DNA from: Terriglobia bacterium
GTDB taxonomy: Bacteria; Acidobacteriota; Terriglobia; JAJPHL01; JAPKYU01
Direction of reading: 5' to 3'
Length of the DNA stretch: 64,000 nt
NCBI GenBank assembly: GCA_965206645.1
Contig: CBDBKE010000004.1
Location: forward strand, 1,632,001-1,696,000
Part shown: positions 5,767 through 42,644 of the stretch, in pieces
Layout: every line of letters starts with the position of its first letter
How positions within the stretch are numbered: the stretch's first letter is position 1
Notes under the pieces: generated by a model
What the model was told of the DNA's origin: nothing
Database searches by the model: none
Seen by the model: the letters and a program-made list of their open reading frames with translations, nothing else
Program-made: the position numbers and the translations under genes

Positions 5767-5843
<77 letters not shown>

Positions 5844-5898: not shown

Positions 5899-5950
5899 AA
5901 CTGTAAAGAAACTGTCAAAAAACTGGCTCTAGACGGCCAGCACTGTAAAG
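5899..5950 (+). repeat. Putative integrase arm-type direct repeats
   Basis: AACTGTAAAG (5899), AACTGTCAAA (5910) and AACTGGC (5921) at 11-bp period, plus CACTGTAAAG (5941), just inside attL. Confidence 0.55.
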
Positions 5951-7089
5951 GAAGTCGCGCCGTGCTCGTTCGCCTGCCGGTCAAGCTTGGACAGCGCTTC
6001 CCGCATCATGTTGAGCTTCGCCTGGCTGTAACGCTTGAACACCTGCGAATCGCCTTGCCGCAGCATCTGCGTCACGAAATGATCCGCCACGCCCCCGGCG
6101 CTGAGCCGGGTCGCAAACGTGTGGCGCAACTCGTATAGCGAAAAATGCGGCAGCCCGGCGCGTTTGAGCGTCCGGTCCCACAGCTTGCGCACCGTCGTGA
6201 TGTGCGGCTTGCTGGACCCCATCCGCGGGCTCGGGAACAGGTAGTCGGAATCGCCGCTCTGCTTCATCTGCGAGGCGAACGCTTCGCGGGCTCTGTCGGT
6301 CATCGGCATGTCCGCGATACCGTTCACCGTCTTGGAATCCGGCAGATGCACGATCCCGTTCTCCAGATCGACCTGTTCCTTTCGCATCGGGATCAACTCG
6401 CGATAGGGCCGCAGCCCCATCTCCACCATGATCGCAATGATGTTACGCAAGTGCAGGGACGCGCAGGCTTCCAGCCAGGCCTGCTTCGAGGCGGTCAGAT
6501 AGTACGGCTTGCGCGTCGTACCAGCCAAGGGGACCGGAAACTCCACCCCATTACACGGATTGACCGCCAGCCGCCGCTTCTTCACCGCCACGTTCAGGAT
6601 GCGATGCAAGATGCGAAACTCCTGATGCACGGTGGCAGGTTTGAGCCTGCCGCGAAGTTGCAGCCCCAACTTGGTGTACACCCGCTTGCCTGTGTTCAAT
6701 CTGGTCATCAGATACGCTTCGATATCCTCCACTGTGATGTCCGATAGTCTGTTCTCGCCGAACCGGGGCCTGAGGAACTTCAGCGCGCCGAGGTTTTGCA
6801 GATGGGTCTGCTCGCTCCGGAAGGGTGGTTGGGAACGGTTCTCCAGGAACCAGTCCGCCCACTCGTTGAAGGTGATCCCAGCGCCCGGCGCGGCGCTCGG
6901 CAGCAGCCCCTCATCGCGAGCCACCAACCGTTTGCGCATCACCTTCTCGGCTTCGCCTTTTTCCCTCTGCCCTGTCGAGGTCTGTCTCCACCTCCCGTTC
7001 TGCTCCCGGTAGCTCATCCACCAGACGCGTGAATTGCGCCGGAGGTAGAGGCTACCAGCGGTATTTCTCGGTCTACCTGTCTTGTTCAT
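5929..7089 (-). CDS. int: Tyrosine recombinase / site-specific integrase
   Basis: GLRPYRE (R), DSKT (K), YELRHTFATRL, VFKRY (Y). GGAGG RBS precedes the ATG at 7089. Adjacent to the tRNA. Confidence 0.93.
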   Translation of the reverse strand: MNKTGRPRNTAGSLYLRRNSRVWWMSYREQNGRWRQTSTGQREKGEAEKVMRKRLVARDEGLLPSAAPGAGITFNEWADWFLENRSQPPFRSEQTHLQNLGALKFLRPRFGENRLSDITVEDIEAYLMTRLNTGKRVYTKLGLQLRGRLKPATVHQEFRILHRILNVAVKKRRLAVNPCNGVEFPVPLAGTTRKPYYLTASKQAWLEACASLHLRNIIAIMVEMGLRPYRELIPMRKEQVDLENGIVHLPDSKTVNGIADMPMTDRAREAFASQMKQSGDSDYLFPSPRMGSSKPHITTVRKLWDRTLKRAGLPHFSLYELRHTFATRLSAGGVADHFVTQMLRQGDSQVFKRYSQAKLNMMREALSKLDRQANEHGATSFTVLAV

Positions 7090-7291
7090 CGATTCCTCCA
7101 TTCACATGAAATTGCTGACGCCACTCGGCCAGCTCCGACCGTCGGAAGCGGATCGAGCGGCCCATCATGCGGTAATGGGGAATCTGCTTTCGCTCGACGT
7201 AAGCATACACCAGCGAGGGGCTGACACCCAGGAAGTGGGCGGCGGCCTTCACCGTGATCGGGGCATCTGTCGCTTCTCCGTTAAGGCTCAT
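7073..7291 (-). CDS. Excisionase-like HTH protein
   Basis: ITVKAAAHFLGVSPSLVYAYVERKQIPHYRMMGRSIRFRRSEL is an HTH_17/Xis pattern. The gene overlaps the int start. Confidence 0.88.
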   Translation of the reverse strand: MSLNGEATDAPITVKAAAHFLGVSPSLVYAYVERKQIPHYRMMGRSIRFRRSELAEWRQQFHVNGGIDEQDR

Positions 7292-7463
7292 CTTTCCCTC
7301 CCTACTCTCCATACGAAACTACAAGGGGGAACTCCGCGCGGAGAGTCCGTTGCGATTCCTCGGAGAAGACGCCGTATCGCTCGGCGATCCACGCCGGGAC
7401 TTCCAGCGTCTCGTCACCGTCCCGGTCGAAGTTCTTGAGGGTATTCACCCGTATGATTTTTCT

Positions 7464-8429
7464 TCATCCGTCATCGTGTTCCCTCCAGATCGGCTCGATA
7501 AGCCAGCGGTTTTGCGGCGCGTCGTAACCCTGGACGCGCAGCGCTTCCTCCACGAACCGCTTCCCCTCGCGGCGCGTCATGTGAATCACCATCGCAATGC
7601 CGTCCACCACGCCTCGGCATGTGACCTCCCAGGGAAGCTCACCGCCGCCCTGCATGGCGCAACTGGCGATGCGCGACAAGGCCGACTCGGCGTTGTTGGC
7701 GTGTACGGTGGTGAGCGAGCCGCCGTGTCCGGTGTTGAGGGCTTGTAGCAGGTCCGCCGCCTCCCCGCCGCGCACCTCGCCGACTACGATGTGATCCGGG
7801 CGGTGACGGAGCGCGTGGCGGACGAGATCACGGATCGTCACCGCTCCTTCCTGTAATCCGCGAGCCTCGAAGCGGACGCAATTCGAGCGCTCAATGCGAA
7901 GCTCCAGGGTGTCCTCGATGGCGACGATGCGCTCGTCGTCGGGAAGCAATTCAATAAGTGCGTTAAGCAGGGTGGTCTTGCCCGATCCGGTGCCGCCTGA
8001 AACCAGGATGTTGCGGCGCGAGCGCAACACCCGCTCCGCTTCCGCTCGCACCTCTTCTAGGAGTGCGCCTTGCTTCACGAGATCATCCGCCGAGAACGCC
8101 CGCTTGCCAAAGCGCCGCATGGTGATCGCCACCGTGGGGCTCGCGGGCGGAACACAGATCGCCACCCGCGAGCCGTCGTCCAGGCGCGCATCGACAATCG
8201 GCGAGCTCGCCGGATCCAAGCCCAAAGGCCGGGCGATGTGGATGGCCGCCCGCAACAGGGCCGATTCGTCCAGGTCCGGCGCGTCATGTGCCGTCAACCG
8301 CCCGGCCCGCTCGACCCAGACATTGCCGGGGCCGTTAATCATGATCTCGCTGACTTCGGAATCTTCCAGGGCGCTTTCCAATCCCGGTAGAAATGGTTTC
8401 AGGTGTTCCAGTCCACTCGCGGCGCTCAT
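7464..8429 (-). CDS. VirB11/TrbB/CpaF-family traffic ATPase
   Basis: Walker A GGTGSGKT, AIEDTLEL, LRHRPDHIVVGEVRG, NTGHGGSLTTVHAN. The start overlaps the T4CP stop (ATGA). Confidence 0.93.
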   Translation of the reverse strand: MSAASGLEHLKPFLPGLESALEDSEVSEIMINGPGNVWVERAGRLTAHDAPDLDESALLRAAIHIARPLGLDPASSPIVDARLDDGSRVAICVPPASPTVAITMRRFGKRAFSADDLVKQGALLEEVRAEAERVLRSRRNILVSGGTGSGKTTLLNALIELLPDDERIVAIEDTLELRIERSNCVRFEARGLQEGAVTIRDLVRHALRHRPDHIVVGEVRGGEAADLLQALNTGHGGSLTTVHANNAESALSRIASCAMQGGGELPWEVTCRGVVDGIAMVIHMTRREGKRFVEEALRVQGYDAPQNRWLIEPIWREHDDG

Positions 8430-10555
8430 AATTGACCCGCCGCTTTCGCTCTCCAATAGGAGTGTTCTAGGGGCAGATAATGAGGTTTGAGATAGACCCG
8501 TCGCGGCTCAAGCGACTGCGACCCGTCATAGGGCAGACAGATCGCTTGACAGTTTCCCAGCAAGGTGAAGTCTCGCGGGTGAAACACGGCCTCCCGGCGC
8601 TCCTGGAATGACTTGGTAGCGCCGATGCTTCCGCCTCCTCCCCCGGCGCGGCCTGACAGCGGGGAGACTTCCGCCCTCTTGGAGGTCTCGCTGATCGTGT
8701 AAGAACCTTTGATCTTCGCCACCTGCCCGCACATTTCGCTTGCAATCTTGGCGCTGGCGTCGTCGCTGAGAGACAGGAAAATCCGGGTGCGGAGCGTCTG
8801 CAACAGCGAGCGCCATGCTTCCGAGCTTCCCAACACAGAGCGTAGCGAGGAAATGGATTGAGTGGCGACAATCGGGATGCAGCGGCATTGCCGGGTCAGC
8901 GCAAAGGATTTTTCATCGCCCGATGGATCGTCCTCGCCCACCGAAGCGAAGGCTTGATATTCGTCACAGATAAAGACGGCAGGCCGGAAATAGACCCCCG
9001 GCGACTCCTTCATCTTGGTCGGACGCATGAGAAGCGCCTGTAGCCAGGCGTTCTTGAGCATCACGCCCACGGCGCGGGCCAGCGCCGGGTTCGATCCGGC
9101 GGGCATGTTCAAGGCCAGCACCTTGCCCCTTTCGATCAATTCATAGAGCGGGGACAGGTGTCGCGGCCCGGCGATTCGTTCCTCTTCAACGGAAGGAATC
9201 GACTTGGGCGCGGGTTTGTCTCCTTCCCCGCCGTCCGGCTTCTTGTTCAGCTCCTGGGCTCCCCGCGCCGCCCGCATAGCTACCCTGGCTTGAACTGCAA
9301 TGGCTTGCGGATCGTCGGGGACTTCCGGCGGACCCGGGCAAAACACCTTCGCCACATCCGGCATGTCGAACATGGCAAGGAATACCGAAACCCCCTCCAC
9401 AATCGAGGACTTGATTTTGTTATCCAGCGTTTGCCAGTCGTTGACAAACCAGCGCTTCACCGCCTCAACTCGTTCTCTCACTTCGTCTCCGGGTCCGGGG
9501 TCCCAAACCACCCGGTAGGTCAGCTTGAGCTCGTCCAGTTTTTTGAGCATAGGGCGGGAGTAGGCGGCCCGCACTTCTTCCGTTCCCGGTATGTCTTTCC
9601 ATAGCCATTCAGCCAAGGTCATGATGTGGGCTTGGTATACGACCTCCGGAATGAAAACCGTGCCTCTGTTCAACTCGTCGCTCCACGCTTCGGCTTGCTC
9701 GATCTTGGCTGCGAAAAGGTCCGGGTCGATGGCGCAGCGGTAGACCTGCTGCAACGTCACCCACCGTTCCGGGAATATCCGGTGAAGCTCGATGATCCAG
9801 CGGACCAGATTGGTATAGGCTTGCTGCCAGAAGGGTTCCTTGCCCTTGCCGAATAGCTGGTTGAGAAGGCTGGAAACGGTGTAGGCCAGCGAGTAGGAAT
9901 CGAGCCACCAGGCCGAGAGCGGGTTCCATTGCCAGCGCCCATTCATGCCCAGCTCGATGTAGTCTTTTCCCCGGCCCGCCTCGATCAGGATTCGCCGGAT
10001 ATCGTGACAGAAATCTCCCTTGACTTCGAGCATGAGCGCTGCCGCCCGCTTCTGTGGATTCTCGGCTTGCCAGCCGAGAAGCTGCTTGGCGAAAGGGTGC
10101 ATGCAAGCCGAGGTCTTCCCGGACCCGACGGCTCCAAAAATCGCCACGCCGGTATACAGCCCCCGCTCCGGGATGGTGAGCCAGGAAGGATTGAAAATCT
10201 CCCGCGCTTCGACCGGGTGATGTACCTCCCCGATCACGATGGCCGGGGCCGTTTGCCGGGTTGAAAGCGGCCAGGTCGGGAGCGCCCCAAAGGGCGCAAA
10301 ATCCCGCCGCCGCGATTCCAGCCAGACCTTCCAGACGGACATGAGAATGAGGCCCGCGAGCATGACGGCGACGAAAGGCGAAGCGTAGTACCAGAGCATC
10401 ACCCAGCCGTAGAAGTTCGGGGTGTGGTAGTCCATGAGATCGAGCAAGGGACTGTCCCCTAGCATGGGGAAGGGACGGCGGACAAAGCTCCACAGGGCGT
10501 ACCCCAGACCGCCGAAAAACAGAAGGATGTGAGGAATGAAGCGCCGCCATTTCAT
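8426..10555 (-). CDS. Type IV coupling protein (TraG/TraD/VirD4-like)
   Basis: Two N-terminal TM segments, Walker A GAVGSGKT, EVKGD, FWQQA, Walker B FICDEYQ, ATQSISSL. Start placed at MKWRRF (10555). Confidence 0.87.
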   Translation of the reverse strand: MKWRRFIPHILLFFGGLGYALWSFVRRPFPMLGDSPLLDLMDYHTPNFYGWVMLWYYASPFVAVMLAGLILMSVWKVWLESRRRDFAPFGALPTWPLSTRQTAPAIVIGEVHHPVEAREIFNPSWLTIPERGLYTGVAIFGAVGSGKTSACMHPFAKQLLGWQAENPQKRAAALMLEVKGDFCHDIRRILIEAGRGKDYIELGMNGRWQWNPLSAWWLDSYSLAYTVSSLLNQLFGKGKEPFWQQAYTNLVRWIIELHRIFPERWVTLQQVYRCAIDPDLFAAKIEQAEAWSDELNRGTVFIPEVVYQAHIMTLAEWLWKDIPGTEEVRAAYSRPMLKKLDELKLTYRVVWDPGPGDEVRERVEAVKRWFVNDWQTLDNKIKSSIVEGVSVFLAMFDMPDVAKVFCPGPPEVPDDPQAIAVQARVAMRAARGAQELNKKPDGGEGDKPAPKSIPSVEEERIAGPRHLSPLYELIERGKVLALNMPAGSNPALARAVGVMLKNAWLQALLMRPTKMKESPGVYFRPAVFICDEYQAFASVGEDDPSGDEKSFALTRQCRCIPIVATQSISSLRSVLGSSEAWRSLLQTLRTRIFLSLSDDASAKIASEMCGQVAKIKGSYTISETSKRAEVSPLSGRAGGGGGSIGATKSFQERREAVFHPRDFTLLGNCQAICLPYDGSQSLEPRRVYLKPHYLPLEHSYWRAKAAGQL

Positions 10556-10936
10556 AGAGTCCGTTTCCCTTCTTTCATCGCCCCGGCTGGGGGCGCTCTT
10601 CCGAGCCTTCCCGCAGGGATAAATGAGGACGATAGCGACCCTCATGGGGGGGCAGGAACGGTGTGCCGCAACGCACCGCTGCTGGGGCCACATGACCCCC
10701 CACTTTTCGGGGGGGTCGCTATCGTCCTCCCCGATTTTGCTGCATCGGCGCGGGTGAGTCCGATGTGTAAGGGATAACCGCAACGGAATGAGAGAGATGA
10801 GAGAATGTGGTTTTGCCGCATCTCTTGGCTGAATCTTGCCGTACCCTCCCTCTGTGACTGCGGCATCCTGGATCGGGCGTTGCGGCATGAAAAAACCCTT
10901 CAATTTCCTCTCTCCGTTCCGGCCTTCGGGCTGCTT
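10556..10936. promoter_or_regulatory. Structured intergenic region, candidate oriT / regulatory site
   Basis: Perfect 17-bp inverted repeat (10625-10641 / 10713-10729) with nested hairpins, four TGCGGCA copies, and the only large gap in the transfer region. Confidence 0.5.
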
Positions 10937-11881
10937 TCATCCGGTTTCCTCCAGGACCGCAAACCGGGTGGCCCGCCACGTTCCGTAGTCGTCAATCGAG
11001 ACCCCTTCCGTCAGCTTCGCTTCGGGGAGACGTTGAAGCTCCGCCGACCGTCTTCCGGCTGCCGCGAATCCCCCATACTGCGCCAGAAATTCCCGGTCCT
11101 TGTGAGTCATCGCCTCGTCAATCGCCTTGATTTCCTGCCGCACCGTCCACCCTTCCCCGGTCTCCTTCGGGGCGGTCGCGGCCCACACCCGGAGCACCCG
11201 CGCCGTCCGATCCACGGTTTCATTCTCCGCTGCGATCCCGATCACCCGGACCTGCCGCCCCTTCTTGCGGAGCGCATCCCAAAGCGGCCCATGCGCGGCT
11301 CCCCAGGAGTGCAACTCCCGATCCGTTTGGTGGCCCGGATCGACGTAGGCGAAGGTGACGGTTTCCGGGTCCGCCGCAATAGGAAGTTTGAGCGCAAAGT
11401 AGCGTTTCTGCGCTCCCACTGCCCCGTAATAAATCCGTCGCGGGATCAGCCGCCGCGATAGGCCGAGCTTTTCAAAGAACGCAACCTTCTCCGGCTCGGC
11501 GGGGAGCCAGTTCATGCCCGGATGTTCCAGAACGAAATCCAGCGATAGGAGCCGCCGCATCACCACCGGCGGGCAGGCTTTGCGACGGTGGCGGATGTTC
11601 TCGACCCCCAGCGCCCGGTAGATCGGCTTGCTCGATATCCGGCACGGCCTCGCCCCCCCGGAGAACATCAAGTTTTCATTCTCTACCGCTGCCCGCCGTA
11701 CAACCAACGCTTGGACGAAGCGGTGCGCCCGCTTGCTCTCCGCATCAAAGTAGAAACAGAACTGCGGGCGCGTGAAGACGCCGCTGTGAAGGCACACCAG
11801 CGCGATCCACTCCGCTTCCCGGCCCGTCCAACCGAATTGTTCCAGTGCTGTTTCCCGCCCCCGCAAGTGCTCGATCATCAT
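10937..11881 (-). CDS. ICE protein of unknown function with wHTH-like N-terminus
   Basis: 314-aa ORF coupled to virB8. N-terminal GWTGREAEWIALVCLHSGVFTRPQF looks like a winged helix. No assignable family. Confidence 0.7.
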   Translation of the reverse strand: MMIEHLRGRETALEQFGWTGREAEWIALVCLHSGVFTRPQFCFYFDAESKRAHRFVQALVVRRAAVENENLMFSGGARPCRISSKPIYRALGVENIRHRRKACPPVVMRRLLSLDFVLEHPGMNWLPAEPEKVAFFEKLGLSRRLIPRRIYYGAVGAQKRYFALKLPIAADPETVTFAYVDPGHQTDRELHSWGAAHGPLWDALRKKGRQVRVIGIAAENETVDRTARVLRVWAATAPKETGEGWTVRQEIKAIDEAMTHKDREFLAQYGGFAAAGRRSAELQRLPEAKLTEGVSIDDYGTWRATRFAVLEETG

Positions 11882-12555
11882 TGCTTCCCGGTAACGATTG
11901 CCCGGTCGCCTTGCAGATAGCTGATAACGATCCCCATAGGGTTGTGGACGATCAGGTCCGGCGGGATCGTATCGAGGAACTGGAATTGCAGCGAGAGGGT
12001 CCAGCGTTCCCGGCTCACTTCGTTTGCCATCACCATCCGCACCAGGTCAAAATCTGCCGTCGCGCTGTGCGGCTCCTGGGGATTGGCCTGAATCCTCAAA
12101 ACGACGCGATCCACTTGCAGTTCATCCTTGGCCGCTCCCGCCGCGAGAAGAGCGATATTCTGACTCTCGGCCCGAAACGAGGCGTTGGCGAGTTCGGTGG
12201 TCAGGAAGCGCAGACTGCGGGACCAGTTCTCTTGGACCGTGGCCTTCCGGCGCGAGTAGAAGTCATAAATAAAGCGGTTGAGAAAGTATTTGGTGGTGGG
12301 GTCCAGCGGGTCCGCCTGGGCCTCCATCGCCTCGTAGGCGATGGCCTCGGCCCGGCCTACTTCATCCACCCTCACGACGATGGGGCGGGGCGGATCAACC
12401 GACACAATGCGAATGACGACGATGATGAGCAAGAGCAAGCCGATTCCCAACCCGACGGAGAGCACCCGTAGATGACGGTTGGAGTGGATGGCTTCGCCCC
12501 ATATTTCGGCGTACTCGGCTCCGGCGTCTTTGACGCTGGTTTCGGTGTCCTTCAT
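11878..12555 (-). CDS. VirB8/TrbF-family protein
   Basis: Single TM, PIVVRVDEVG, KYFLNRF and C-terminal HNPMGIVI (NPxG motif). Confidence 0.88.
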   Translation of the reverse strand: MKDTETSVKDAGAEYAEIWGEAIHSNRHLRVLSVGLGIGLLLLIIVVIRIVSVDPPRPIVVRVDEVGRAEAIAYEAMEAQADPLDPTTKYFLNRFIYDFYSRRKATVQENWSRSLRFLTTELANASFRAESQNIALLAAGAAKDELQVDRVVLRIQANPQEPHSATADFDLVRMVMANEVSRERWTLSLQFQFLDTIPPDLIVHNPMGIVISYLQGDRAIVTGKQ

Positions 12556-13550
12556 TTGATCCCTCCCGCGCCCGCCTTGGCCGCCGCCGCGCCTCCGGTG
12601 GCCGCAACCGTTCCCGCCGTGGTTGCCATTCCCATGAGGCCGCTGCCCGCCGCTCCTGTGCTGGTGACGAGCATCGAGGCGAGCTCCCCGCACTTGAGGC
12701 TTGCCAGCATCCCGGCGACGAACAAGGGCACGACGGCGATCATCCACAAGCCCACGTCTATGAAGCTCTGCATGTCCAGGTTGGCATTCCCCAAGCTCGT
12801 GATGTAGGAGATTCCGACAGCGGAGAAGACCCGGAGCACCGCTCCGGCGATCACGGCATAAAGCGAGTAGGTAATCATCGCCCGGAACCATCCCCAGAAC
12901 AGAAACGACAGCGGCTCGAACACCAGAAACGGAATGAAGATCGGCCCCAAGATGATGAGGATGGCAAGCGCGATTTGAGCCCAGATCACTTGAGCGTAGG
13001 TGACGGCGGCCAACAGAAGCAGCATAAGGACCACAAACACAAACATTGCAAACCCCGCAACCGCCGTTATTGCGGCATGGATCCCGCCGGTGAGTAGGCC
13101 GAGCGTGTTCCCCGCTTGCGCCTGGGCCGCCTGGTTCGCCGCGAGGGAGCGAATGAGGTTCCCAAGCTCGGTCTGCATCGAATAGACGGCATCGCCGATC
13201 AGCAGTTCGTGAAGCCAATTTCCACCCGCCGCAATCATCCCTGGGAAGGTGAAAGCCATTCCCGGAATGGTGGTGGTGTAGAACTGCAACATCACCCACG
13301 GTATCCACAACCCAATGACGACCCGAATCAGTTCCCACGGCTGAATGTTCCCGCTAAAGGCGATCTTCAGCCCGTTCAACACCACAACGATGAGCGCCAG
13401 ACCCCCGAAGAGCGCGTTTCCGGTGGTGAAAACCTCCCCGCCCGCCGCCGCGGTCAGTCCATCCAGAGCGACATCGAGGAACGATTTGAAGTCCCTCAGT
13501 TGTTCCGGGGAAAGGTTGGCCGGGATGTTGGGATCGAGTTGGATTTGCAT
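12552..13550 (-). CDS. VirB6/TrbL-family inner membrane protein
   Basis: Polytopic, LGPIFIPFLVFEPLSFLFWGW, Ala/Gly-rich tail. Confidence 0.88.
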   Translation of the reverse strand: MQIQLDPNIPANLSPEQLRDFKSFLDVALDGLTAAAGGEVFTTGNALFGGLALIVVVLNGLKIAFSGNIQPWELIRVVIGLWIPWVMLQFYTTTIPGMAFTFPGMIAAGGNWLHELLIGDAVYSMQTELGNLIRSLAANQAAQAQAGNTLGLLTGGIHAAITAVAGFAMFVFVVLMLLLLAAVTYAQVIWAQIALAILIILGPIFIPFLVFEPLSFLFWGWFRAMITYSLYAVIAGAVLRVFSAVGISYITSLGNANLDMQSFIDVGLWMIAVVPLFVAGMLASLKCGELASMLVTSTGAAGSGLMGMATTAGTVAATGGAAAAKAGAGGIK

Positions 13551-13562
13551 CGGCGAAGTCGA

Positions 13563-14477
13563 TTACTGGCCGTTCCCGCCGTAGGCCGGGTGAATCCGAA
13601 AGAGCAACCCTTCGCGCATGGAATCGCGGCGGGCATCGAGCCCGGCCTGTTGCGCCGCGAAGGTGATCTCGGCCCGGCGCTGCGTCTCGATCCATCGAGC
13701 CAGCGCCTCCCGTCGAGCAATCTCGCGTTCGTAATCCTCCGCCGCCTCTTTCGCCGCCTGAAACGCCATCAACTGCGCCATAGCAGCGGTGAGGTTCCCC
13801 TGCGTCACTGTCCCGGCCACCTGCGATTGGGCCAGCGCGGTGTTGGAGGTATTGGTGTTGTTCCGCAGTCCTTCGTAGGACTCCACGGCGTCTCGCGCCG
13901 CAATCATGAGATTCGCCGCCGCGTCGCTCATTGCGTGATCGAGCACCAGGCGCTTGTCACCTTCCTCCCGCGCCGCGAGATAGCCGTTGGCTACTCCCGC
14001 AGCGATCTCCGGGCGATAGTCGTCGTACAAAGTGAGGATGTCGCTCTCGGTCACCGTGTCGGCGGAGGTGAGCCGCCCGCGCCAGGATTGGGTAAAGCTC
14101 TTGCCGGTTTCGCCCATCTGTTCGACTGACGACGCAAGCTCCGCCGCCACGCCGGTAAAATCGCTTTTCCACGATAGGCCCACGCCGATAAACTGCGCCG
14201 GTGCGGATGCCAATTCAGTGAACGGATCGGTCAGCGCTCCCACGGCTCCAAGCGCTTGCTCTTTCAGGTGCGACGCCTGATCTATCATCTGGGTGAGTTG
14301 GCCGTCAAACGTGATCTTCGCCATGGTGTCTTTGTAGATTTGGACGCCCTGATTGATGATCATCTGCGCCCGTTGAATGCCCGCCAGGATCGAGCCGAAG
14401 ATGGCGTAGGCGGGCGTGGTGGTCAGGACGATAAAGAGTGGGATAACAACTACTGCGGTCAAGATTCGATGTTTCAT
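13563..14477 (-). CDS. TrbJ/VirB5-like secreted helical protein
   Basis: Signal peptide (PAYA), QMIINQGVQI, Ala/Gln-rich helices, located upstream of virB6. Confidence 0.65.
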   Translation of the reverse strand: MKHRILTAVVVIPLFIVLTTTPAYAIFGSILAGIQRAQMIINQGVQIYKDTMAKITFDGQLTQMIDQASHLKEQALGAVGALTDPFTELASAPAQFIGVGLSWKSDFTGVAAELASSVEQMGETGKSFTQSWRGRLTSADTVTESDILTLYDDYRPEIAAGVANGYLAAREEGDKRLVLDHAMSDAAANLMIAARDAVESYEGLRNNTNTSNTALAQSQVAGTVTQGNLTAAMAQLMAFQAAKEAAEDYEREIARREALARWIETQRRAEITFAAQQAGLDARRDSMREGLLFRIHPAYGGNGQ

Positions 14478-14480: not shown

Positions 14481-15830
14481 TCAGTCTCCTTTTGTGGGCC
14501 GGGGCACCAGCACGTCGGAAGTGAACCAGACGCGAAGCCGGTGCCCGGCGCGTATTGTGATGGTGGGTAAACGATTCAAGAAACGCTGCAAGATTTGGGT
14601 GGCGCTTTGTCCGAGTCCCTGCCCGGCACCGGCCCGGAAGCCCGCCCCGCCGCTCTCGTAAGGGTTGCCGCCTTGCGCCGTGAGTCCGGCCAGGATGCCG
14701 ACCGCCCCGACAGCGGCGAACATGGAAAAGTAGTGTCGGTTGACTTGATCTTTCAAGGCTCCCTCGCCGAGTTGATTCAACCCATGAAATTCGAGCGACA
14801 CCCAACGCCCGTCCGGGTAGATCAAGCGGTGGAAACTCACGGCGAGTCGGGCTTGGTCCTGATTGGATACGGCCTGAGCCGTACCAATGACCCGCGTACC
14901 ACGCGGCACCAAGATGCGCTGCCGGTCTGCCGAGTAAAAAGGCACCGAAACCACGGCTAGGACCGGGCCGGGAAAGTCACCGGAAAGCTGCGTGACCAGG
15001 GCCGCTTCCAAAAACGAGCCTTCATAGATGCGCTCCCAACCGGGGGGGGCTTCCGGCCCCCTGACCCGGGCCGGAGAAGAGTAATCCCGCGCCGGTGCGG
15101 GCCCAGCCGCCGCCGTAGGAACGGCGGGCGTGGACGCAGCGGTTGGTGTCCCTCTGAGTGCTTCGATAAACGCTCGGTCCGCCTGGGCCTCCGCCGCCAC
15201 TTCATCTTGGAGGCCGGTCGTGACCGTCCCAATCGTGTCGAGGGCCTGTTCGAGCGCCGCCGCCCCTTCCGCTCTCATGGCATCGACCGGGCTTGCGGTT
15301 TCGTCCCCCTGCCCCTCGGACGACGCCCCCTCCCTGCCGTCCAGTTGCCGGTAGGTCTGTGCGACCGGCGAACTGCGAAGCGACCGGCTGCGCCGCTCGA
15401 GGGCTTCCAGCCGCAAGCGTTCCCGGAGTTCCCATTCTTCCTCGGTATAGGGTTGCCCGGTGTCGGGACTTGTCCCGGCCAGCGCCTTCGCTTGATCGGC
15501 GGTTACGCGGCCCGCGCCTACTCCGCCGCTGTTGCCTTGCTGCCGTTGCTGCCGCGCTCGCAATTCACGCTCCGCCGCTTGTCGGCGCGTCTCCGCTCGA
15601 AGCGACTCTGCTTCCACTTGCGCGGCCATCTGATCGGCGAAGCTCCGGGGCGCGGTCTGCTCTGCGCCCGGATCGGGCGAAAGCTCCGCTTCCTTGCCGC
15701 CTCCGAAATAAATCCAGTACGTCAGGAACACGAGAACGAGAATGGTGATGATCCCGACGCCCCATTGAGTGACGATGCCGCCCGGCAGCGATCCCGCCGG
15801 TTTGGGATAGAGCCGCCGCCAGCCGATCAC
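14481..15830 (-). CDS. VirB10/TrbI
   Basis: GSFLEAALVTQLSGDFPGPV, ILVPRGTRVIG, DQVNRHY, PTITIRAGHR. GTG start overlaps the virB9 stop. Confidence 0.92.
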   Translation of the reverse strand: MIGWRRLYPKPAGSLPGGIVTQWGVGIITILVLVFLTYWIYFGGGKEAELSPDPGAEQTAPRSFADQMAAQVEAESLRAETRRQAAERELRARQQRQQGNSGGVGAGRVTADQAKALAGTSPDTGQPYTEEEWELRERLRLEALERRSRSLRSSPVAQTYRQLDGREGASSEGQGDETASPVDAMRAEGAAALEQALDTIGTVTTGLQDEVAAEAQADRAFIEALRGTPTAASTPAVPTAAAGPAPARDYSSPARVRGPEAPPGWERIYEGSFLEAALVTQLSGDFPGPVLAVVSVPFYSADRQRILVPRGTRVIGTAQAVSNQDQARLAVSFHRLIYPDGRWVSLEFHGLNQLGEGALKDQVNRHYFSMFAAVGAVGILAGLTAQGGNPYESGGAGFRAGAGQGLGQSATQILQRFLNRLPTITIRAGHRLRVWFTSDVLVPRPTKGD

Positions 15831-16669
15831 GGCCCGATCTCCGGCGCCGTGAAGCGCCATCGGACTTTTTGTTTGCCGATCTGCAACCAGCCGTCACCCA
15901 AAACGTGACGGGCGATATACAGCCCGTCCTCGCCCAGATCGTAGGCCACCAGCGCCGGTTTCCCGTCCTTCTCTTCATACAGTGCGGGCGACTCCTGGGG
16001 GTTGGCGCGAAGGTAGGTAAACCGCCCGTCGTGCCACATCCCTTCGACCAGAAACGGCCATTTCTTCGCCTTGTCCTCCAATCGGTAGGGGAACTTGAGG
16101 CGCGTGGGATACTCCGCCCGGAACGCCTCGGTTTCCCGCGCCGCAAGCGCCGTAACGTCGGCGATGCGGGAATCCGCGTCAACTTGCGCATCCTTGGCCG
16201 TCTCGATGGCTGTTTTCGCCATCTGCTGATAGGCCGCAACCTGGGAGCGAGCGACAAAGGCCGGTTCGTGCCCGGCCGGTGAAATGCGCGGGTCGGCGTC
16301 CGCCTGGGCCTCGATGCGAACCACTAGATGCGGCTGGCCCGCACTTTGCTCGGTGACGAGGAACGAGTAAATGCGACCGGAGGCGCAAACCAGCGCGACG
16401 TTGGTAGTCACGCCCTCGGCGATGGGTTTGAGGAAGGCCAGATTAGCGGCCCCGGTCAGGTGCCAGTACTCGGAATCTCCCACGACAAAATCCAGCACGT
16501 TTTCCGTCGCGGGAAGCACGATGACGGTGGTGTGCCGGGTCTTGGCCCGAATCTGGATGATTTGATCCTGGGTCTCGATGACGCGGAGGACCTGCCCGCC
16601 GTCCTGAGCGATCAGCGGCAACGACAGGGCAAGCAGCGCCGCCATCACGAGTGGAATGATCTTCAACAT
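15827..16669 (-). CDS. VirB9/TrbG
   Basis: Signal peptide, TTVIVLP, GDSEYW, NLAFLKP, TTNV, WHDGRFTY, PALY. Confidence 0.9.
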   Translation of the reverse strand: MLKIIPLVMAALLALSLPLIAQDGGQVLRVIETQDQIIQIRAKTRHTTVIVLPATENVLDFVVGDSEYWHLTGAANLAFLKPIAEGVTTNVALVCASGRIYSFLVTEQSAGQPHLVVRIEAQADADPRISPAGHEPAFVARSQVAAYQQMAKTAIETAKDAQVDADSRIADVTALAARETEAFRAEYPTRLKFPYRLEDKAKKWPFLVEGMWHDGRFTYLRANPQESPALYEEKDGKPALVAYDLGEDGLYIARHVLGDGWLQIGKQKVRWRFTAPEIGP

Positions 16670-16675: not shown

Positions 16676-19099
16676 CTACCTCCTGGACAGGTGTTCAATG
16701 GCCTCGGTGAGGCCATACTGTTTGACTGCTTCCGCCCGCTTCTGAGCATCGATCGGCGACGAGGTATAGAGCCAATAGCTGGCCGGATCGACTTCGAGGC
16801 GCAAGATGCCCGCCGCGTCGGTGCGCCGTAGATAAAGCTCCCGTTTGGGGATCAAGCCGCGAATGGTGTTCATTTCCGAAGGGTTCAGCCGGAAGGTGTC
16901 TGCGGCTTTCTCCGGCAAGTCGGGGTTGGCAAGGAATAGCTTGGTCGGCATGGATTCGAGCAACGCTTCCGCCCCTGCAGTTCCGGTTACGTCCACGGCG
17001 CTCTGCGTGGCGACGACGAGCGCCGCGTTCTTCTTGCGCCAGGTCTTGGCGGCTTCGGCCAGGTAGCCGAGAATGGCCGGGTCTTTCAGGTAGCGCCACG
17101 CTTCATCGACCACCATGAGTTTTACCCTTGCGGCCTCATCCGGGTTCTCCAAAGCTAGCCGCAACCGTTCGAGAAGGTAGAACAGCGCTGCTTCGCAGAG
17201 GTCTTCGTGCTCCGCCGCGCCCGCCATGTCGATCACCTGCCAGTCCTGGAAGTTGAGATCGTCTCCGTCTGCCGGGTTGTCAAAGTACCTGGCCCACGCG
17301 CCGGCTCCGTGCCAACGCCCCAAAGCGGGCCACATCTTTGCGGGAAGAGAACGGACCAGCACCCCAAGGGTCCGCCGCTGGGGTGCAAAGGCATAGAGGT
17401 CTTCGACGCGGGCGCGGATCTCGCTGGGGTCTTCGCCGCTGAGTTTCCACCCGCCGATCCTCAACAGACGCGATATCCAGCCGGTGAGGAACTGGAAGCT
17501 CCGCTCCCCGACCGGGAGCGAGAAGGGGCGCAACCGGAAACCGGCGCTCCCGCTCCCGTCGGGGGATAGCTCCATATAGCCGCCCCCGAGAAACTGCGTG
17601 AGCCAGCGATAGGAGCCGCCTAGATCAAGAATGAGAACACGCGGATCGTATTGGAGCGCCTGAACCAGCAGGAAATTGAGCAAGAAACTTTTACCCGCGC
17701 CGGTGGCGCCGAGAACCAGCGTGTGCCCCACGTCGCCCTGAAACAAATCGTAGTGATAAGGGGTGCGCCATCGCGTTTCGAGGATCGCCAGCGCCGGCTT
17801 CCGCAAGTGGCCGCTCCGGGGTGTCCCCACCGGCGGCCCGAAGATCGGGGCCATCGAAGCGACCGCGCCCGCCGATACAAACACGGATCGGACCTGCCGC
17901 CGTCGCGGTTGCGCGGGCATCCGCGAGAACCAGGCCGGAAGCTGCCCGTAACCCTCCCGGATTACCTTGGCGTCGTGGCTGGCAAAGATGCGCCGAATAT
18001 CTCCGTCCAGGCCCTCGGTCTCCGATAGCGGGCCGTGGATCGCCACGGTCAGGGCAAGGTCGCCGTAGGCGATACCGTCCGTCTCCAACTCGACCAGGGC
18101 ATCGCCCAGCCGGTCGGATTCCGCCGCCGCTGCCGTGTCCACCATCGCCGACGTCGTCCCTTCGGTTTCCTGAACGTGCGCGGACATCGAGTAGCGCTTC
18201 GAGAAGTAATGCCGCTGCGCCCCACGGATTTTGCGCCGGGCGGCATCGAGGCGCTGCGGCCGCCATTCGAGCGTGACGGTCATGGTTGCATCGAGCCGGT
18301 AAAGACCCTGTAGAAGATTGGCGCGAGCTGCAGCGGGAGGCGAAAGCAGCGAGTAGAGAATGACGGGTTCCCCGTCCAGGCGCAGATTGCGCCGCTCCGC
18401 TTCGAGCTCGGAAACGGCCAGCCGCCAATTCATGCCGCTGCCCCTCGCGCCGTCCCAAAAGGTTCCAGGCCGGTTCGTGAGTTCATTCAAGACGAGAGAC
18501 GCATCCCGCGCTTCGAGCATCCGCACCGGCGTAAGGTCGTCGACCAGCGCCCGGCTCGCCTCGACCAGCTGCCGAAAGCCCGCCGCCGCCGATTCGATAG
18601 AGGAATGGAGGTAAACGGATTCATGCCGGTTCCGCCTCCGGGCCATCCAGTTCTTGGCATAGGCCATCCACCACGGCCCGCCCGTCCTCTCGGTGGTGAC
18701 GGCGGACAGGTGCGGATCGTGAACCCATGCGACGTAGGCGCTCACGTCCTGCACTCGATCCGCGAGGAACGACCGGCGCTTGCGCCGTCCGAGCGCAGCC
18801 ACGCTCGACGCCGCGCCGTCGGACTCGTCTGCAAAGTGGATCGGGCGGCGCAATAGATAGAAGTAAAGCCGCGTCCGGGAATCGAGCCCCGACAACATCC
18901 GCTGCCAGCGGTCGATCACCCGATCCAGTTGTTCGGGGGTCTGGCCGTCCAGGACGCTGGGCGTCATCCGCCCGATGCTCATAAGTTCTCCCGCCCGCGT
19001 CAGGCACGTTCGCCCATCTTCCAGCCAGCCCCACCAGGGCAGTTCCTCGGCCAGCGATCCCGCCGCTTCGTAGTCCAGGAGTTCGTCGTTCACGTTCAT
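16676..19099 (-). CDS. VirB4/TrbE ATPase
   Basis: DVGHTLVLGATGAGKS (Walker A), DLGGSY, MVVDEAW (Walker B), RKKNAALVVATQS. Confidence 0.94.
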   Translation of the reverse strand: MNVNDELLDYEAAGSLAEELPWWGWLEDGRTCLTRAGELMSIGRMTPSVLDGQTPEQLDRVIDRWQRMLSGLDSRTRLYFYLLRRPIHFADESDGAASSVAALGRRKRRSFLADRVQDVSAYVAWVHDPHLSAVTTERTGGPWWMAYAKNWMARRRNRHESVYLHSSIESAAAGFRQLVEASRALVDDLTPVRMLEARDASLVLNELTNRPGTFWDGARGSGMNWRLAVSELEAERRNLRLDGEPVILYSLLSPPAAARANLLQGLYRLDATMTVTLEWRPQRLDAARRKIRGAQRHYFSKRYSMSAHVQETEGTTSAMVDTAAAAESDRLGDALVELETDGIAYGDLALTVAIHGPLSETEGLDGDIRRIFASHDAKVIREGYGQLPAWFSRMPAQPRRRQVRSVFVSAGAVASMAPIFGPPVGTPRSGHLRKPALAILETRWRTPYHYDLFQGDVGHTLVLGATGAGKSFLLNFLLVQALQYDPRVLILDLGGSYRWLTQFLGGGYMELSPDGSGSAGFRLRPFSLPVGERSFQFLTGWISRLLRIGGWKLSGEDPSEIRARVEDLYAFAPQRRTLGVLVRSLPAKMWPALGRWHGAGAWARYFDNPADGDDLNFQDWQVIDMAGAAEHEDLCEAALFYLLERLRLALENPDEAARVKLMVVDEAWRYLKDPAILGYLAEAAKTWRKKNAALVVATQSAVDVTGTAGAEALLESMPTKLFLANPDLPEKAADTFRLNPSEMNTIRGLIPKRELYLRRTDAAGILRLEVDPASYWLYTSSPIDAQKRAEAVKQYGLTEAIEHLSRR

Positions 19100-19102: not shown

Positions 19103-19399
19103 CTATCTCCGAATCAGGATCGTCCAGGGAGCCGCCGCCCATTTGCCGGGATCGTAGCGGACCCGGAACTTGGCCGAGGCTCGCAGGATTTCGAGCATGT
19201 TGGGGTCTTGTTTCCAGGCCCAAAATCCCACGCCGTAGAGCACCCCGAAAATGACTCCCCCGGTCACAATGGAGTTGATGGCGTTCCACATGGCAAGGCC
19301 CAACGTCGCGCTCAGAAGAAACCAGCGCCGTTCCACGCCCATGATCGTTAGGGGTTTACTGAGCGCCGGGTAGCCGCGCCACGTCTTGCCGCGCTCCAT
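19103..19399 (-). CDS. VirB3/TrbD
   Basis: LSKPLTIMGVER, two TM segments, KQDP, located between the pilin and virB4. Confidence 0.88.
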   Translation of the reverse strand: MERGKTWRGYPALSKPLTIMGVERRWFLLSATLGLAMWNAINSIVTGGVIFGVLYGVGFWAWKQDPNMLEILRASAKFRVRYDPGKWAAAPWTILIRR

Positions 19400-19692
19400 C
19401 AGAAGAGCCACGCCAGAAAGTTGGCCGCGCCCATGGCCATGCCAAGACCGAAGACGATCCCGGCCAGGGCCTTTTTGCTGCCGCCTTCACCAAAGGCGAA
19501 CATGAGTCCGCCCACCACGATGGCAATCAAGCTCAGTCCTCGCGCAATGGGTCCGGTGAACGCCGCCTGCAGCACGTCTATGGCTTGCAGCCAGGGGCTC
19601 GTTCCCTGCGCCATGAGTTCTCCCGCCGATAGTGCAAGGATGCTCACCAGCAGCGCTCCTCGCTTCCAGGTGATTAAGTTGTTGGTGTTCAT
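19399..19692 (-). CDS. VirB2/TrbC pilin
   Basis: MAQGTSPW...AFTGPIARGLSLIAIVVGGLMFAFGE is a TrbC pattern. Confidence 0.9.
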   Translation of the reverse strand: MNTNNLITWKRGALLVSILALSAGELMAQGTSPWLQAIDVLQAAFTGPIARGLSLIAIVVGGLMFAFGEGGSKKALAGIVFGLGMAMGAANFLAWLF

Positions 19693-19724: not shown

Positions 19725-20048
19725 TCAGGCTCCGGGAAACTGCCCCCGGTCCTCTTGTTCCAGTTTCTCGGCAAGCTCGGTTTGCCCGCCCTCGCCGCGC
19801 CGGATGGACCGCTCCATCAGATCGACCTTGCGGCCCATGTCGGCCAGCCCCAAGGCGCGGGCGGCGGAGTAGATCACGACCATAAGCGTCACCACGGCCA
19901 GCCCGCCATGCCACGCGACGGGTAGCCAGTAGTCGGTTGCGATGATTCCTAAGTACGGCTTGAGATAAGCGAAGCTCTCGCCGGCGAGCATCAAGGCCAC
20001 GGCCAGGATGATGGCCGTCAGTCCAATGCTGATCTTCCACGGTTGCAT
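19725..20048 (-). CDS. Small membrane protein of unknown function
   Basis: Two hydrophobic helices and a charged C-terminal helix, with an RBS, co-directional in the operon. Confidence 0.7.
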   Translation of the reverse strand: MQPWKISIGLTAIILAVALMLAGESFAYLKPYLGIIATDYWLPVAWHGGLAVVTLMVVIYSAARALGLADMGRKVDLMERSIRRGEGGQTELAEKLEQEDRGQFPGA

Positions 20049-20058
20049 CGCTTCTCCC

Positions 20059-20964
20059 TCAGAGTTCGATGGAGCCCTTGTCTCGTCTGCCGCCGCTTCC
20101 TCCTCCGCCTCCGGTGCTGTGGTCCTGGCCGAGCGCCCGCGCCACTCGTGCCGCCGCCCGCCCATTGCTTCCATGCACGGCGAATCCAGCGGCGGCTTTT
20201 GCGCCGATACTCTTGGCGCTGTAGTGCTCGGTCGCAATCTCCACGTTCACGCGCCCGCTGCGGCCATCGATGTCGCTGTACTCAAGCTGAGCGTCCGGGT
20301 ACTCCACCCGTCCATCCTTGACGGGGAGCCCCAGCGCCTCCGCCGCCTGGAACCGTGCAGCGTCCGCCGCCTCCTTTCCGCCTCGCGCTCTCGCGCTTTC
20401 CGTGGCGCGGGCGATCTCGCGCTTGAGTTCGGCGTCAATGCGGACCCGCTTGAGGACGGCTCCTTGTTCGAGCAACCGCACTTGCTCAATCCTTGCGGCT
20501 CGAAACACGGCCACGTCATGTTGAAGCTCTCCGGGCTTCACGAGCCCGCTCCATGCCTTCTGCTCTTTGTCGAGTCCTTGTTCGCGGGCTACCCGCTCGG
20601 CCCGCTCTACTCCGCGCTCGGTGAGCGTGAGCACCTTGTAGGCGCCGCCTTGCGGCCCCTCGGCGCTGTGCTCCCGGACGTGCCCGGCACGAATCATGCG
20701 ATCCACAGCCCGACGCGCCGCGTAAGGGTGTCCATCGAAGTGAGCTTCGGCCATATCACGGTAGGCGACACTCCGATACATCCCCACGTCGGCCACCGCC
20801 CGATCTGCCCGCTCCTGGAAGTTCTGGCGCTCGGTGCAGGGATCGTATTCGCGCCGGTGGCCGTCGCGCTCCCGCTGTTCCCGCTCTTTGGTGTGGTCGC
20901 GCCTGGGGCGAGCTCCGGGCGTCCGGGTTCGGGGATCGCTGGCTAGGTCTCGCGGATCGAACAC
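20059..20964 (-). CDS. Putative relaxase of the PD-(D/E)XK class (MOBC / replication-relaxation-like)
   Basis: wHTH-like N-half, LQHD, and YPDAQLEY...VNVEIATEHY nuclease-like motif. No HUH relaxase occurs elsewhere in the ICE. Confidence 0.6.
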   Translation of the reverse strand: MFDPRDLASDPRTRTPGARPRRDHTKEREQRERDGHRREYDPCTERQNFQERADRAVADVGMYRSVAYRDMAEAHFDGHPYAARRAVDRMIRAGHVREHSAEGPQGGAYKVLTLTERGVERAERVAREQGLDKEQKAWSGLVKPGELQHDVAVFRAARIEQVRLLEQGAVLKRVRIDAELKREIARATESARARGGKEAADAARFQAAEALGLPVKDGRVEYPDAQLEYSDIDGRSGRVNVEIATEHYSAKSIGAKAAAGFAVHGSNGRAAARVARALGQDHSTGGGGGSGGRRDKGSIEL

Positions 20965-20973: not shown

Positions 20974-22059
20974 TTACCGGCTCAACCCAGCCTCGCGTTG
21001 GAGCCTCTGCGCGTGTTGTTCCGTGGATTGCTTCGGCGTCTGGCTGATCTGAGGCCCGCGAGCATGAGAATATTGGTGGCTCAACTCCGCCGCCGTCTTC
21101 TCCTTCACCGGGGCTTCGCGCTCGTGCTCGACCGCACGGTCCATGAGGTAATTGGTCATCTGTTGCGCGTCCCGCGCCGCTCTATGAATCTCGTGCGGGT
21201 CTTTTTCCAGGACCGCAACCCAATTCTCGACATAGGCCGCGCCGCGCTGCGGGTCATGCCCCACGCCCACGCGCTCCCCCGTCATCATGGCGCTGATCTC
21301 GGCCCGCAATTCCTCGCGGGCGTACTCAGGCGATCCAAAGCCCTTGTCCAGTCCTTCTTTGAGCGTGTCGCGGTTCATGCGGTCCGGGTGGCCGGTCGAG
21401 TGACCGCATTCGTGAAGCGCCGTTTGGTAGTAGCCGTTGCGCGTGGGGAATTGGGACGGCTCCGGGAGCACCACCTTGTCCTCGGCGATCCGATAGTAGG
21501 CCCGATCTCCGGCGACGTGCTCGACCCTCGGCCCGCTGGCCTCAATCACCTTCTCCGCATCGCGGTGAGCGTCCCATTCGGGCCGCGCTTGCGCCGGTCG
21601 CGGTTTCAACTCCAATCCGTCGACTTGCTCGACGTTGAACACCGTGTACTGTTTACAGATGGGATGGGAACGCTGCTCTTCTTCGTAGATCGTCTTGCCG
21701 TCCTTGTCTTTCAGCGTCTTGCCCTGCTCGTCCTTTGCGGTTCGTGCCGTCCGATCCGTGAAAAACAAGACCTGCGTCCCTTTCTCACCTTTGCGAACCT
21801 GCCCGCCCGCCGCTTGGATCTGGCCGTACGTTCCCCAACGGTTGTCTCCCCGGCCATCGCGGATACCCCTGCTCATCAGGTAGAGACTGTTGCCGCCCGT
21901 GTAGGATTTGCCGGTCGAGAAGTTTTCCGGGCTGCTCTGCTCCCCCGGCTTCCACGGCTTCTGCCACGGTGCAACTCCCGCCTTGATTTGTTCGATGAGT
22001 TCTCCGCTGACTTTCTCCGCGTAGTCTTCCCCGCGCTGCCAAAAGGATTTTTTAGCCAT
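20974..22059 (-). CDS. ardC: ArdC-family ssDNA-binding antirestriction protein (DUF1738 plus zincin-like domain)
   Basis: PWQKPW, GKSYTGGN, RWGTYGQIQAAGGQVRKGEKG, YTVFNVEQ, LHECGHSTGH, YAREELRAE. Confidence 0.9.
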   Translation of the reverse strand: MAKKSFWQRGEDYAEKVSGELIEQIKAGVAPWQKPWKPGEQSSPENFSTGKSYTGGNSLYLMSRGIRDGRGDNRWGTYGQIQAAGGQVRKGEKGTQVLFFTDRTARTAKDEQGKTLKDKDGKTIYEEEQRSHPICKQYTVFNVEQVDGLELKPRPAQARPEWDAHRDAEKVIEASGPRVEHVAGDRAYYRIAEDKVVLPEPSQFPTRNGYYQTALHECGHSTGHPDRMNRDTLKEGLDKGFGSPEYAREELRAEISAMMTGERVGVGHDPQRGAAYVENWVAVLEKDPHEIHRAARDAQQMTNYLMDRAVEHEREAPVKEKTAAELSHQYSHARGPQISQTPKQSTEQHAQRLQREAGLSR

Positions 22060-22076: not shown

Positions 22077-22268
22077 TTAGTCGTGCCGATCGCGCCGCGC
22101 CGCGTTGATCTCTTCCACGGTGCCCACGTCCTCGACCATCAAACCGATCTGCTCTCCGAGTTCCCACGTCAGTTCAACCGCGAGCCCACGGTTCAACGCC
22201 TCGTGAAATTCAGCCTCGGTTTCGACCGATAGGTATTTCTCGCCGTATTCTTCCTTCTCTTGCATCAT
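22077..22268 (-). CDS. Small acidic hypothetical protein
   Basis: 63-aa ORF MMQEKEEYGEK... whose start overlaps the upstream stop. Confidence 0.6.
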   Translation of the reverse strand: MMQEKEEYGEKYLSVETEAEFHEALNRGLAVELTWELGEQIGLMVEDVGTVEEINAARRDRHD

Positions 22269-23415: not shown

Positions 23416-23427
23416 GAGGATAGCCGT

Positions 23428-42599: not shown

Positions 42600-42644
42600 T
42601 TGGGGTGCAAGAGGTCTCGGGTTCAAATCCCGACGGCCCGACCA
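42600..42644 (+). repeat. attR: duplicate of the tRNA-Pro 3' part
   Basis: TTGGGGTGCAAGAGGTCTCGGGTTCAAATCCCGACGGCCCGACCA, 44/45 identical to 5799-5843. Confidence 0.93.

Follow-up and report, generated by a model that had tools for sequence, protein, structure and literature searches.

A probable relaxase of the MOBC/Replic_Relax kind with a rebuilt active site, and its predicted origin of transfer, in an Acidobacteriota integrative conjugative element

The product of ORF 20059-20964 (minus strand; designated the 301-aa protein after its length) is probably the relaxase of an integrative conjugative element (ICE) in the 64,000-nucleotide stretch of DNA analysed here (the window). Its sequence and modelled structure point to a protein of the MOBC/Replic_Relax kind with a rebuilt active site, and what is new is probably this active-site variant, missed by standard profiles, together with its predicted origin of transfer. 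The original prediction of a divergent MOBC-like relaxase had staked itself on a PD-(D/E)XK-like architecture, on acidic residues conserved in homologues and on linkage to a type IV coupling protein (T4CP) or VirB4. The last two were found, the architecture is the likely reading of the modelled domain, and the proposed MOBC/Replic_Relax kinship is supported as well. The register that it assigned to the active-site motif did not hold, and it overlooked a second candidate, the product of 10937-11881, designated X314.

Organization of the Element

The ICE spans 36.8 kb between the two copies of a 45-nt direct repeat that are 98% identical (Table 1). It has the integrase, the attachment repeats at a tRNA gene, the T4SS and the T4CP of an ICE and is without an annotated relaxase. 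Along the minus strand the order is ardC, the gene for the 301-aa protein, the 108-aa gene, virB2, virB3, virB4, virB9, virB10, the 304-aa ORF, virB6, virB8 and X314, followed by a 381-bp spacer, the coupling-protein gene, virB11, the excisionase-like gene and the tyrosine integrase gene. The gene for the 301-aa protein starts with GTG, a start codon backed by end-to-end coverage in most of 120 listed homologues, and ardC lies 9 bases upstream of it. A position between ardC and the pilin genes had been described earlier; ardC is indeed the direct upstream neighbour, but the 108-aa gene intervenes before virB2. No relaxase family known to Pfam was found among the 84 ORFs of the window (26 + 58 scanned), and the sole relaxase trace in these scans was Replic_Relax on the 301-aa protein, with an E value of 0.099.

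Table 1. Features of the element, as positions in the window
Feature	Position	Strand	Basis or remark
Left attachment site	5799..5843	+	3' part of tRNA-Pro(GGG) 5767-5843
Tyrosine integrase	5929..7101	-	Pfam
Excisionase-like HTH_17 protein	7073..7312	-	Pfam
VirB11 ATPase	7464..8456	-	Pfam, NCBIfam
Type IV coupling protein (VirD4-like)	8426..10555	-	Pfam TraG-D_C, TrwB_AAD_bind
17-nt motif beside repeat, nearly invariant	10604..10620	-	candidate protein-binding site
Inverted repeat, T4CP-proximal arm	10625..10641	+	71-nt spacer between arms
Inverted repeat (17 bp, perfect), T4CP-distal arm	10713..10729	+	predicted nick 10714/10715, by analogy with CloDF13
X314, conserved 314-aa protein	10937..11881	-	no Pfam family; wHTH-like N terminus
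VirB8	11878..12555	-	Pfam
VirB6/TrbL	12552..13550	-	Pfam
304-aa ORF at expected VirB5 place	13563..14477	-	no family match; putative VirB5
VirB10/TrbI	14481..15860	-	Pfam
VirB9	15827..16669	-	Pfam, NCBIfam
VirB4	16676..19099	-	NCBIfam
VirB3	19103..19411	-	Pfam
VirB2/TrbC pilin	19399..19674	-	Pfam
Conserved 108-aa predicted membrane protein	19725..20051	-	sub-threshold holin match only
Probable relaxase, MOBC/Replic_Relax-like variant, 301 aa	20059..20964	-
PD-(D/E)XK-like domain, residues 144-277	20134..20535	-	H149 D150, P223 D224, E242, Y248, K256
Winged-helix domain, residues ~49-128	20581..20820	-	model; best matches MarR/PadR folds, Z up to 9.9
ArdC-family ssDNA-binding/antirestriction protein	20974..22059	-	Pfam ArdcN, MPTase-PolyVal
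Right attachment site	42600..42644	+	45-nt direct repeat, 98% identical

Upstream of ardC, two small minus-strand ORFs, both conserved, have no Pfam match: one of 61 aa (22077-22262), present in 29 of the best 80 of 153 related loci, and one for a 150-aa Cys-rich zinc-finger-like protein (22265-22717), present in 35 of the same 80. The cargo (23098-42240) contains many IS elements or fragments, with DDE transposases and rve integrase-core types, as well as two methyltransferases, a trypsin-like peptidase, an aldo-keto reductase, a molybdopterin oxidoreductase, an IS-interrupted efflux adaptor with an outer-membrane efflux protein, and a nucleotidyltransferase/CDP-alcohol phosphotransferase fusion. 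A NucS-like endonuclease, seemingly split over two overlapping ORFs (23428-24475, plus strand; weak Pfam NucS_C and HSDR_N matches), is possible defence cargo. A molybdenum-cofactor riboswitch lies outside the ICE at 62612-62735 (plus strand).

Sequence Family and Replic_Relax Kinship

Among 8000 scored candidates, 1102 were homologues of the 301-aa protein, and the family comprises 972 representatives at 50% identity. Conservation was assessed in an alignment of 78 sequences, consisting of the 301-aa protein, 15 of 120 listed close homologues and 62 of 150 listed 50%-identity representatives, after exclusion of 82 fragments and of 6 long forms. His149, Pro223 and Asp224 are invariant (78/78), Glu242 and Tyr248 are present in 77 sequences, and Lys256, Asp150, Glu179 and Glu228 in 76. 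The near-invariance of Asp224, Glu242, Tyr248, Lys256 and His149 persists down to ~24-30% identity, a pattern expected of an active enzyme. Three motifs can be placed in the 301-aa protein: LQHD (147-150), which the original prediction had named, YPD (222-224) and NVEIAT (240-245).

The 301-aa protein itself does not reach the cut-off of Pfam Replic_Relax (PF13814), scoring 13.2 against 25.3 bits, and has no match among the NCBIfam models. Its relatives approach the family more closely: 8 of the 78 match Replic_Relax at E ≤ 0.01, and 2 of 22 tested members, P0235 (26.1 bits) and P0246 (30.7 bits), pass the cut-off and cover profile positions 1 to ~170 of 191. PF13814 was carried by 13 of the 43 matches in a search with a distant sub-alignment, and the nearest named cluster to the 301-aa protein in the Atlas is Replic_Relax (0.90). 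In PMC5357655, CONJscan equates Replic_Relax with MOBC. A home-made profile of 10 MOBC sequences gave 0 matches in the 9691 ORFs of the best 80 of 153 related loci, and tblastn searches of 72,556 plasmid records with the 301-aa protein, P0213 and P0246 found nothing.

Two other kinds of relaxase were considered and rejected. An HUH relaxase (MOBF/P/Q/V) does not fit a protein with a single invariant histidine, His149, and with no HUH in the 78-sequence alignment and no Pfam match. MOBH (HD-type) was set aside in view of the lack of a 3H motif and the location of His149-Asp150 in the first helix of the α/β domain, where they align with the L-x-H helix of MOBC.

No earlier description of the family was found in the literature searched, which thinly covers subscription journals and is without supplements. 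Goncalves and Santana (Gene 2021, 777:145476) reportedly dealt with ICEs of Acidobacteria and may already treat these elements.

Overall Structure

The full AlphaFold model of the 301-aa protein (mean pLDDT 87.5) comprises a winged-helix domain and a C-terminal α/β domain. The winged helix accounts for the wHTH-like half that had been noted from the sequence, and its best matches are of MarR/PadR type. Because whole-model fold searches returned winged-helix regulators only, the C-terminal domain was folded alone (residues 133-281; pLDDT 95.8). It begins with a helix, a strand and a long helix, continues with a hairpin, and ends with a helix, a strand and a last helix; the domain contains a long helical insert of 34 residues (177-210) that carries a conserved R-x3-D-x-E-L-K motif.

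An unbiased structure search with the isolated domain placed an unrelated helical domain at the top (Z 5.1), and a restriction-type fold occurred in 10 of the 13 rows with at least 75 aligned residues (Z 3.8-4.9). The top Foldseek ranks were DrdV, Bax1, MspI and EcoRI, all with E values above 0.02. When the top 1000 Foldseek chains were re-aligned, 38 of the top 50 rows were, by our own classification, PD-(D/E)XK nucleases, the best being PaqCI (Z 5.3, rmsd 3.7, 97 aligned residues). Searched by sequence against solved structures, the family profile found weak HTH matches only. A PD-(D/E)XK fold is the likely reading of the modelled domain, with matches that are all weak (Z at most 5.3). In the review table of PMC12857230, neither TraX nor MobC has a PDB entry.

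Active Site Register

For comparison with MOBC, 10 plasmid proteins were aligned, including the pTEF1 TraX homologue EF_RS16275, on which the TraX numbering of Asp152, Glu170, Glu172, Lys176 and Arg180 was checked, and a CloDF13-type MobC. The latter was taken from an intact relative (L083) in place of the CloDF13 reference record (L081), in which mobC (6469-7600) is spread over several frames, likely by old sequencing errors. His102, Asp152, Glu170, Glu172, Lys176, Arg180 and Tyr181 are invariant in all 10 sequences. A default profile comparison covered only the N-terminal half, the winged helix and LQH helix (probability 37%). The forced alignment runs colinearly through 184 columns, with a probability of 33% and a pairwise E value of 4.7e-4; at this low probability, it pairs His149 with His102, Asp224 with Asp152, Glu242 with Glu170, Ala244 with Glu172 and Tyr248 with Tyr181, leaving a 5-residue gap in the 301-aa protein over Lys176.

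It had been suggested that the first glutamate of the D-x(n)-E-x-E motif reads Asn in the 301-aa protein. This register, with Asn240 at Glu170 and Glu242 at Glu172, draws some appeal from distant relatives that read D-L-E-L-T, as compared with E-I-E-L-T in TraX, and was set aside on account of the hairpin geometry, the covariation of 226 and 240, and the profile alignment. In the model, the hairpin strands 225-230 and 236-244 place Asp224 opposite Glu242 and residue 226 opposite 240. The pair 226/240 is also the top covarying pair (z 10.3), being Gln/Asn in 37 of 78 rows and Arg/Asp in 31, with no Gln/Asp or Arg/Asn; the switch largely follows the tree, with 4 changes needed for Arg/Asp on a provisional, quickly built one of 66 rows. 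Taken together, the modelled geometry, the covariation and the alignment indicate that Asn240 is the structural partner of Gln226, that Glu242 is the intact first glutamate, and that it is the second glutamate that has been replaced by Ala, Val or Thr.

Of the DEE triad of TraX, Asp152 and Glu170 have their counterparts in Asp224 and Glu242, and the third acid (Glu172) is absent from the aligned sequences (0/78), position 244 being Ala in 47 sequences, Val in 15, Thr in 15 and Met in 1. Equivalents of Lys176 and Arg180 are also absent, and the residue before Tyr248, in the place of Arg180, is His, Ser, Asp or Asn. Tyr181 of TraX is essential for the transfer of pAD1, as reported in PMC6736028.

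Gene Linkage in Related Loci

Related loci were taken as the best 80 of 153 matching stretches from species-representative genomes. The search pattern required the E..HY motif, and these loci are uninformative on the conservation of that motif. Records of Acidobacteriota supply 77 of the best 80, several from the same genomes. VirB4 or a T4CP is encoded within 10 kb of the homologue in 73 of the 80, which is the linkage that had been predicted; ardC is near it in 57, and X314, within 10-kb flanks, in 56. The 108-aa membrane-protein gene follows the homologue in 74 of these best 80 loci, also in those that have their T4SS genes in another place, and its product could be an entry-exclusion or assembly factor. 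PMC3548315 reports one conjugative MPF-T system in Acidobacteria, and many T4SS that lack a relaxase. In five related loci, no other relaxase was found by Pfam in 106 of 177 long ORFs.

The gene for the 301-aa protein precedes virB2 in most close loci. The order in the distant loci L077 and L078 is virB8, the 301-aa homologue, X314, the coupling protein and virB11, and in L080 the homologue again lies between virB8 and X314. The homologue and X314 are adjacent in L078-L080, with one inserted gene between them in L077.

Several other arrangements were observed. The gene inserted in L077 encodes an ABC permease (10937-13435, plus strand), and in the same locus virB9 and virB10 flank a gene for a reverse transcriptase (934-2637, minus strand). 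RepB-type primase genes directly follow virB11 in L047 (7238-8125) and L077 (17868-19103); L047 also has ParA and a resolvase, and relatives of the module may sit on plasmids. The order is circularly permuted in L047, L048, L052 and L076, where virB11 is followed by ardC and the 301-aa homologue. Several genomes, represented by the OZ244973.1, CBDHFM01 and CBDCCO01 loci, have at least 3 separate copies of the element family.

X314

X314 belongs to a large Acidobacteriota family, with 3118 homologues among 7250 candidates. Its conserved residues include Tyr88, His98, Asp115, Glu129, Tyr151, Tyr179 and Asp181, together with a conserved Arg. No Pfam family is common to its 33 aligned members, in which no PD...E motif is visible, its similarity to the MOBC profile is nil (probability 0.5%), and no homology of its C-terminal half to the 301-aa protein or MOBC was found. 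The winged helices of X314 and the 301-aa protein align weakly (probability 54%), and the Atlas offers DUF5697 (0.87) as a lead. From these sequence characteristics X314 is more likely a helper than the relaxase.

Conserved RHRR and RLLSLD motifs were also seen in X314; some homologues have internal repeats of a C-terminal segment, and the gene is frameshift-split in L003, L011, L017 and L026, possibly by assembly errors.

There is a modest chance that the relaxase has two subunits, the 301-aa protein contributing a stripped PD...E-x-A/Y/K site and X314, as a distantly related winged-helix protein, being an obligatory but catalytically silent partner, needed to complete the site or to confine cutting at the inverted repeat to one strand. 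The adjacency of the two genes in L078-L080 and the weak alignment of their winged helices bear on this arrangement. If it were true, the pair would form a distinct MOB family, typical of Acidobacteriota, and the retention of the tyrosine despite the loss of Glu172, Lys176 and Arg180 would mark it as the core of restriction-fold relaxase chemistry.

Predicted Origin of Transfer

The spacer 10556-10936 had been proposed as the DNA on which the relaxase acts, and a MOBC-type inverted repeat inside it agrees with this. The 17-bp repeat is unique in the window for its length and spacing. A corresponding repeat follows X314 in 27 of 32 testable loci, as compared with 3 of 2000 background windows; it is missing from L001, L008, L018, L032 and L076, of which L018 shows it with a mismatch. 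In 27 aligned copies chosen by similarity, 97.8% of the 404 cells are paired, and the changes among these cells are 29 two-sided and 1 one-sided (of the G-U type). In the closer clades the motif at 10604-10620 hardly varies; it was looked for and not found in L077, L078 and L080, which are distant.

PMC5935869 gives the CloDF13 nick site as GGGTG/GTCGGG. This nick falls in a 19-bp repeat, within the arm farther from the coupling gene; the spacer between the arms is 47 nt, a length also seen in L077 and L078. Two further MOBC plasmids share the G-run/GTC core, likewise ahead of the coupling gene, in repeats of 22 bp whose spacers are 55 nt. The distal arm in the window likewise has, on the plus strand, a G-run followed by GTCG, and by this analogy a plus-strand nick is predicted between 10714 and 10715. 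Among 36 repeats, the G/C run is longer in the distal arm in 24 and shorter in 5, two of the five being copies in reversed orientation. In its sequence architecture the repeat is built like the transfer origin of MOBC (CloDF13). According to the preprint 10.1101/2024.01.30.577996, a MOBC relaxase gene is usually found behind the coupling gene, with the origin ~2 kb away; the position of the predicted origin in the window fits this layout, whereas that of the relaxase gene, ~9.3 kb from the repeat, does not.

Because of its place, 70-170 bases ahead of the T4CP start, and the good folding of the strand (z -3.75), the repeat could also be read as an RNA leader or as a simple operator for the coupling-protein gene. 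Such a role in place of an origin of transfer is unlikely: the preponderance of two-sided over one-sided changes suits a DNA repeat better than an RNA stem, an Rfam search of the region gave one match at chance level, and the core and spacer of the repeat resemble the nick region of CloDF13.

It is X314 that adjoins the repeat in the window, and its presence in 56 of the best 80 loci despite the 10-kb flank limit, its many homologues and its own set of conserved residues could suggest, as the main rival reading, that X314 is a catalytic relaxase of unrecognised kind and the 301-aa protein an accessory origin-binding protein. We give this little credence, since X314 has neither a visible PD...E motif nor a shared Pfam family nor any likeness to MOBC, and DUF5697 is a lead, whereas it is the 301-aa protein that resembles MOBC, and the predicted origin is MOBC-type.

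Proposed Role of the 301-aa Protein

With the 301-aa protein as the relaxase, working in the manner of MOBC, transfer would proceed as follows. After excision of the element, the protein would bind the origin (10604-10729) through its winged helix, probably assisted by X314. Asp224 and Glu242 would hold a divalent metal, with help from His149 and Asp150, and Lys256 may replace the lysine that MOBC carries at Lys176. The plus strand would be nicked in the G-run of the distal arm, at 10714/10715, with Tyr248, the counterpart of TraX Tyr181, as a candidate covalent or pilot link to the DNA. The coupling protein and the VirB machine would then export the DNA, the coupling-protein gene entering last.

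The loss of the equivalents of Glu172, Lys176 and Arg180, and the position of the gene ahead of virB2 in most close loci, would also suit a catalytically dead or weak MOBC descendant, kept as a scaffold that binds DNA or as a regulator heading the transfer operon. This is very unlikely in view of the near-invariance of Asp224, Glu242, Tyr248, Lys256 and His149 in distant homologues and of the location of the gene between virB8 and X314 in L077, L078 and L080, near the coupling gene in the first two. The Replic_Relax family also includes plasmid replication proteins. That the 301-aa protein is the replication initiator of the excised circle, with the repeat as replication origin, is highly improbable, the Replic_Relax kinship, the primases of L047 and L077 and the ParA and resolvase of L047 being outweighed by the tight T4SS/T4CP linkage, the position of the repeat upstream of the coupling gene as in a MOBC transfer origin, and the lack of an alternative relaxase in the Pfam scans of the window; a dual role in transfer and replication is possible.

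The 972 clusters of the family represent conjugative elements that would look relaxase-less to Pfam and NCBIfam. Once their relaxase and origin were named, they would be classed anew, as systems for DNA transfer in a phylum that is widespread and little cultured. The piloting of DNA by MOBC relaxases is described as an open question, with no covalent intermediate seen, in PMC12857230 and PMC6736028. Because the variant drops three MOBC-invariant residues, keeps the tyrosine and has a predicted nick site, it makes this question directly testable.

Comparison with Known Systems

The MOBC proteins (pAD1 TraX, CloDF13 MobC) share with the 301-aa protein an N-terminal winged helix and an L-x-H helix, (P/A)D followed 18 residues on by Glu, which is the TraX spacing, and a downstream tyrosine. 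Their elements likewise have a VirD4-type coupling protein and, ahead of its gene, an inverted repeat whose arms are spaced and which has a G-run/GTC core. The 301-aa family differs in the replacement of the second glutamate, in the deletion or replacement of the segment with Lys176 and Arg180, in a new near-invariant lysine 14 residues past the glutamate, and in the 34-residue helical insert with its R-x3-D-x-E-L-K motif. Its gene is not behind the coupling gene, and its elements have the extra conserved gene X314, a presumed partner. Judged by the aligned sequences, with the third acid, Lys176 and Arg180 missing, the 301-aa protein is not a MOBC relaxase in the strict sense.

The acidic pair of Replic_Relax can take the form E-x-D. 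Several members of the 301-aa family match this Pfam family over the full domain, but the 301-aa protein and most members lie below its cut-off, and the 301-aa protein has E-x-A in place of the E-x-D/E pair. The PD-(D/E)XK nucleases PaqCI, MspJI, BsaWI, DrdV, TT1808 and XisH resemble the modelled C-terminal domain in the α-β-β-β-α-β order, in the Asp and Glu at facing ends of the β-hairpin, and in full-domain superpositions that are weak (Z only 3-5). In contrast to these nucleases, the 301-aa protein has no lysine at the (D/E)XK position, and its domain comes joined to a winged helix, in a gene of a conjugation operon. With the MPF-T-like ICEs of Acidobacteria the element has in common a tRNA-targeted tyrosine integrase, VirB2-3-4, VirB6, VirB8, VirB9, VirB10, VirB11 and the coupling protein.
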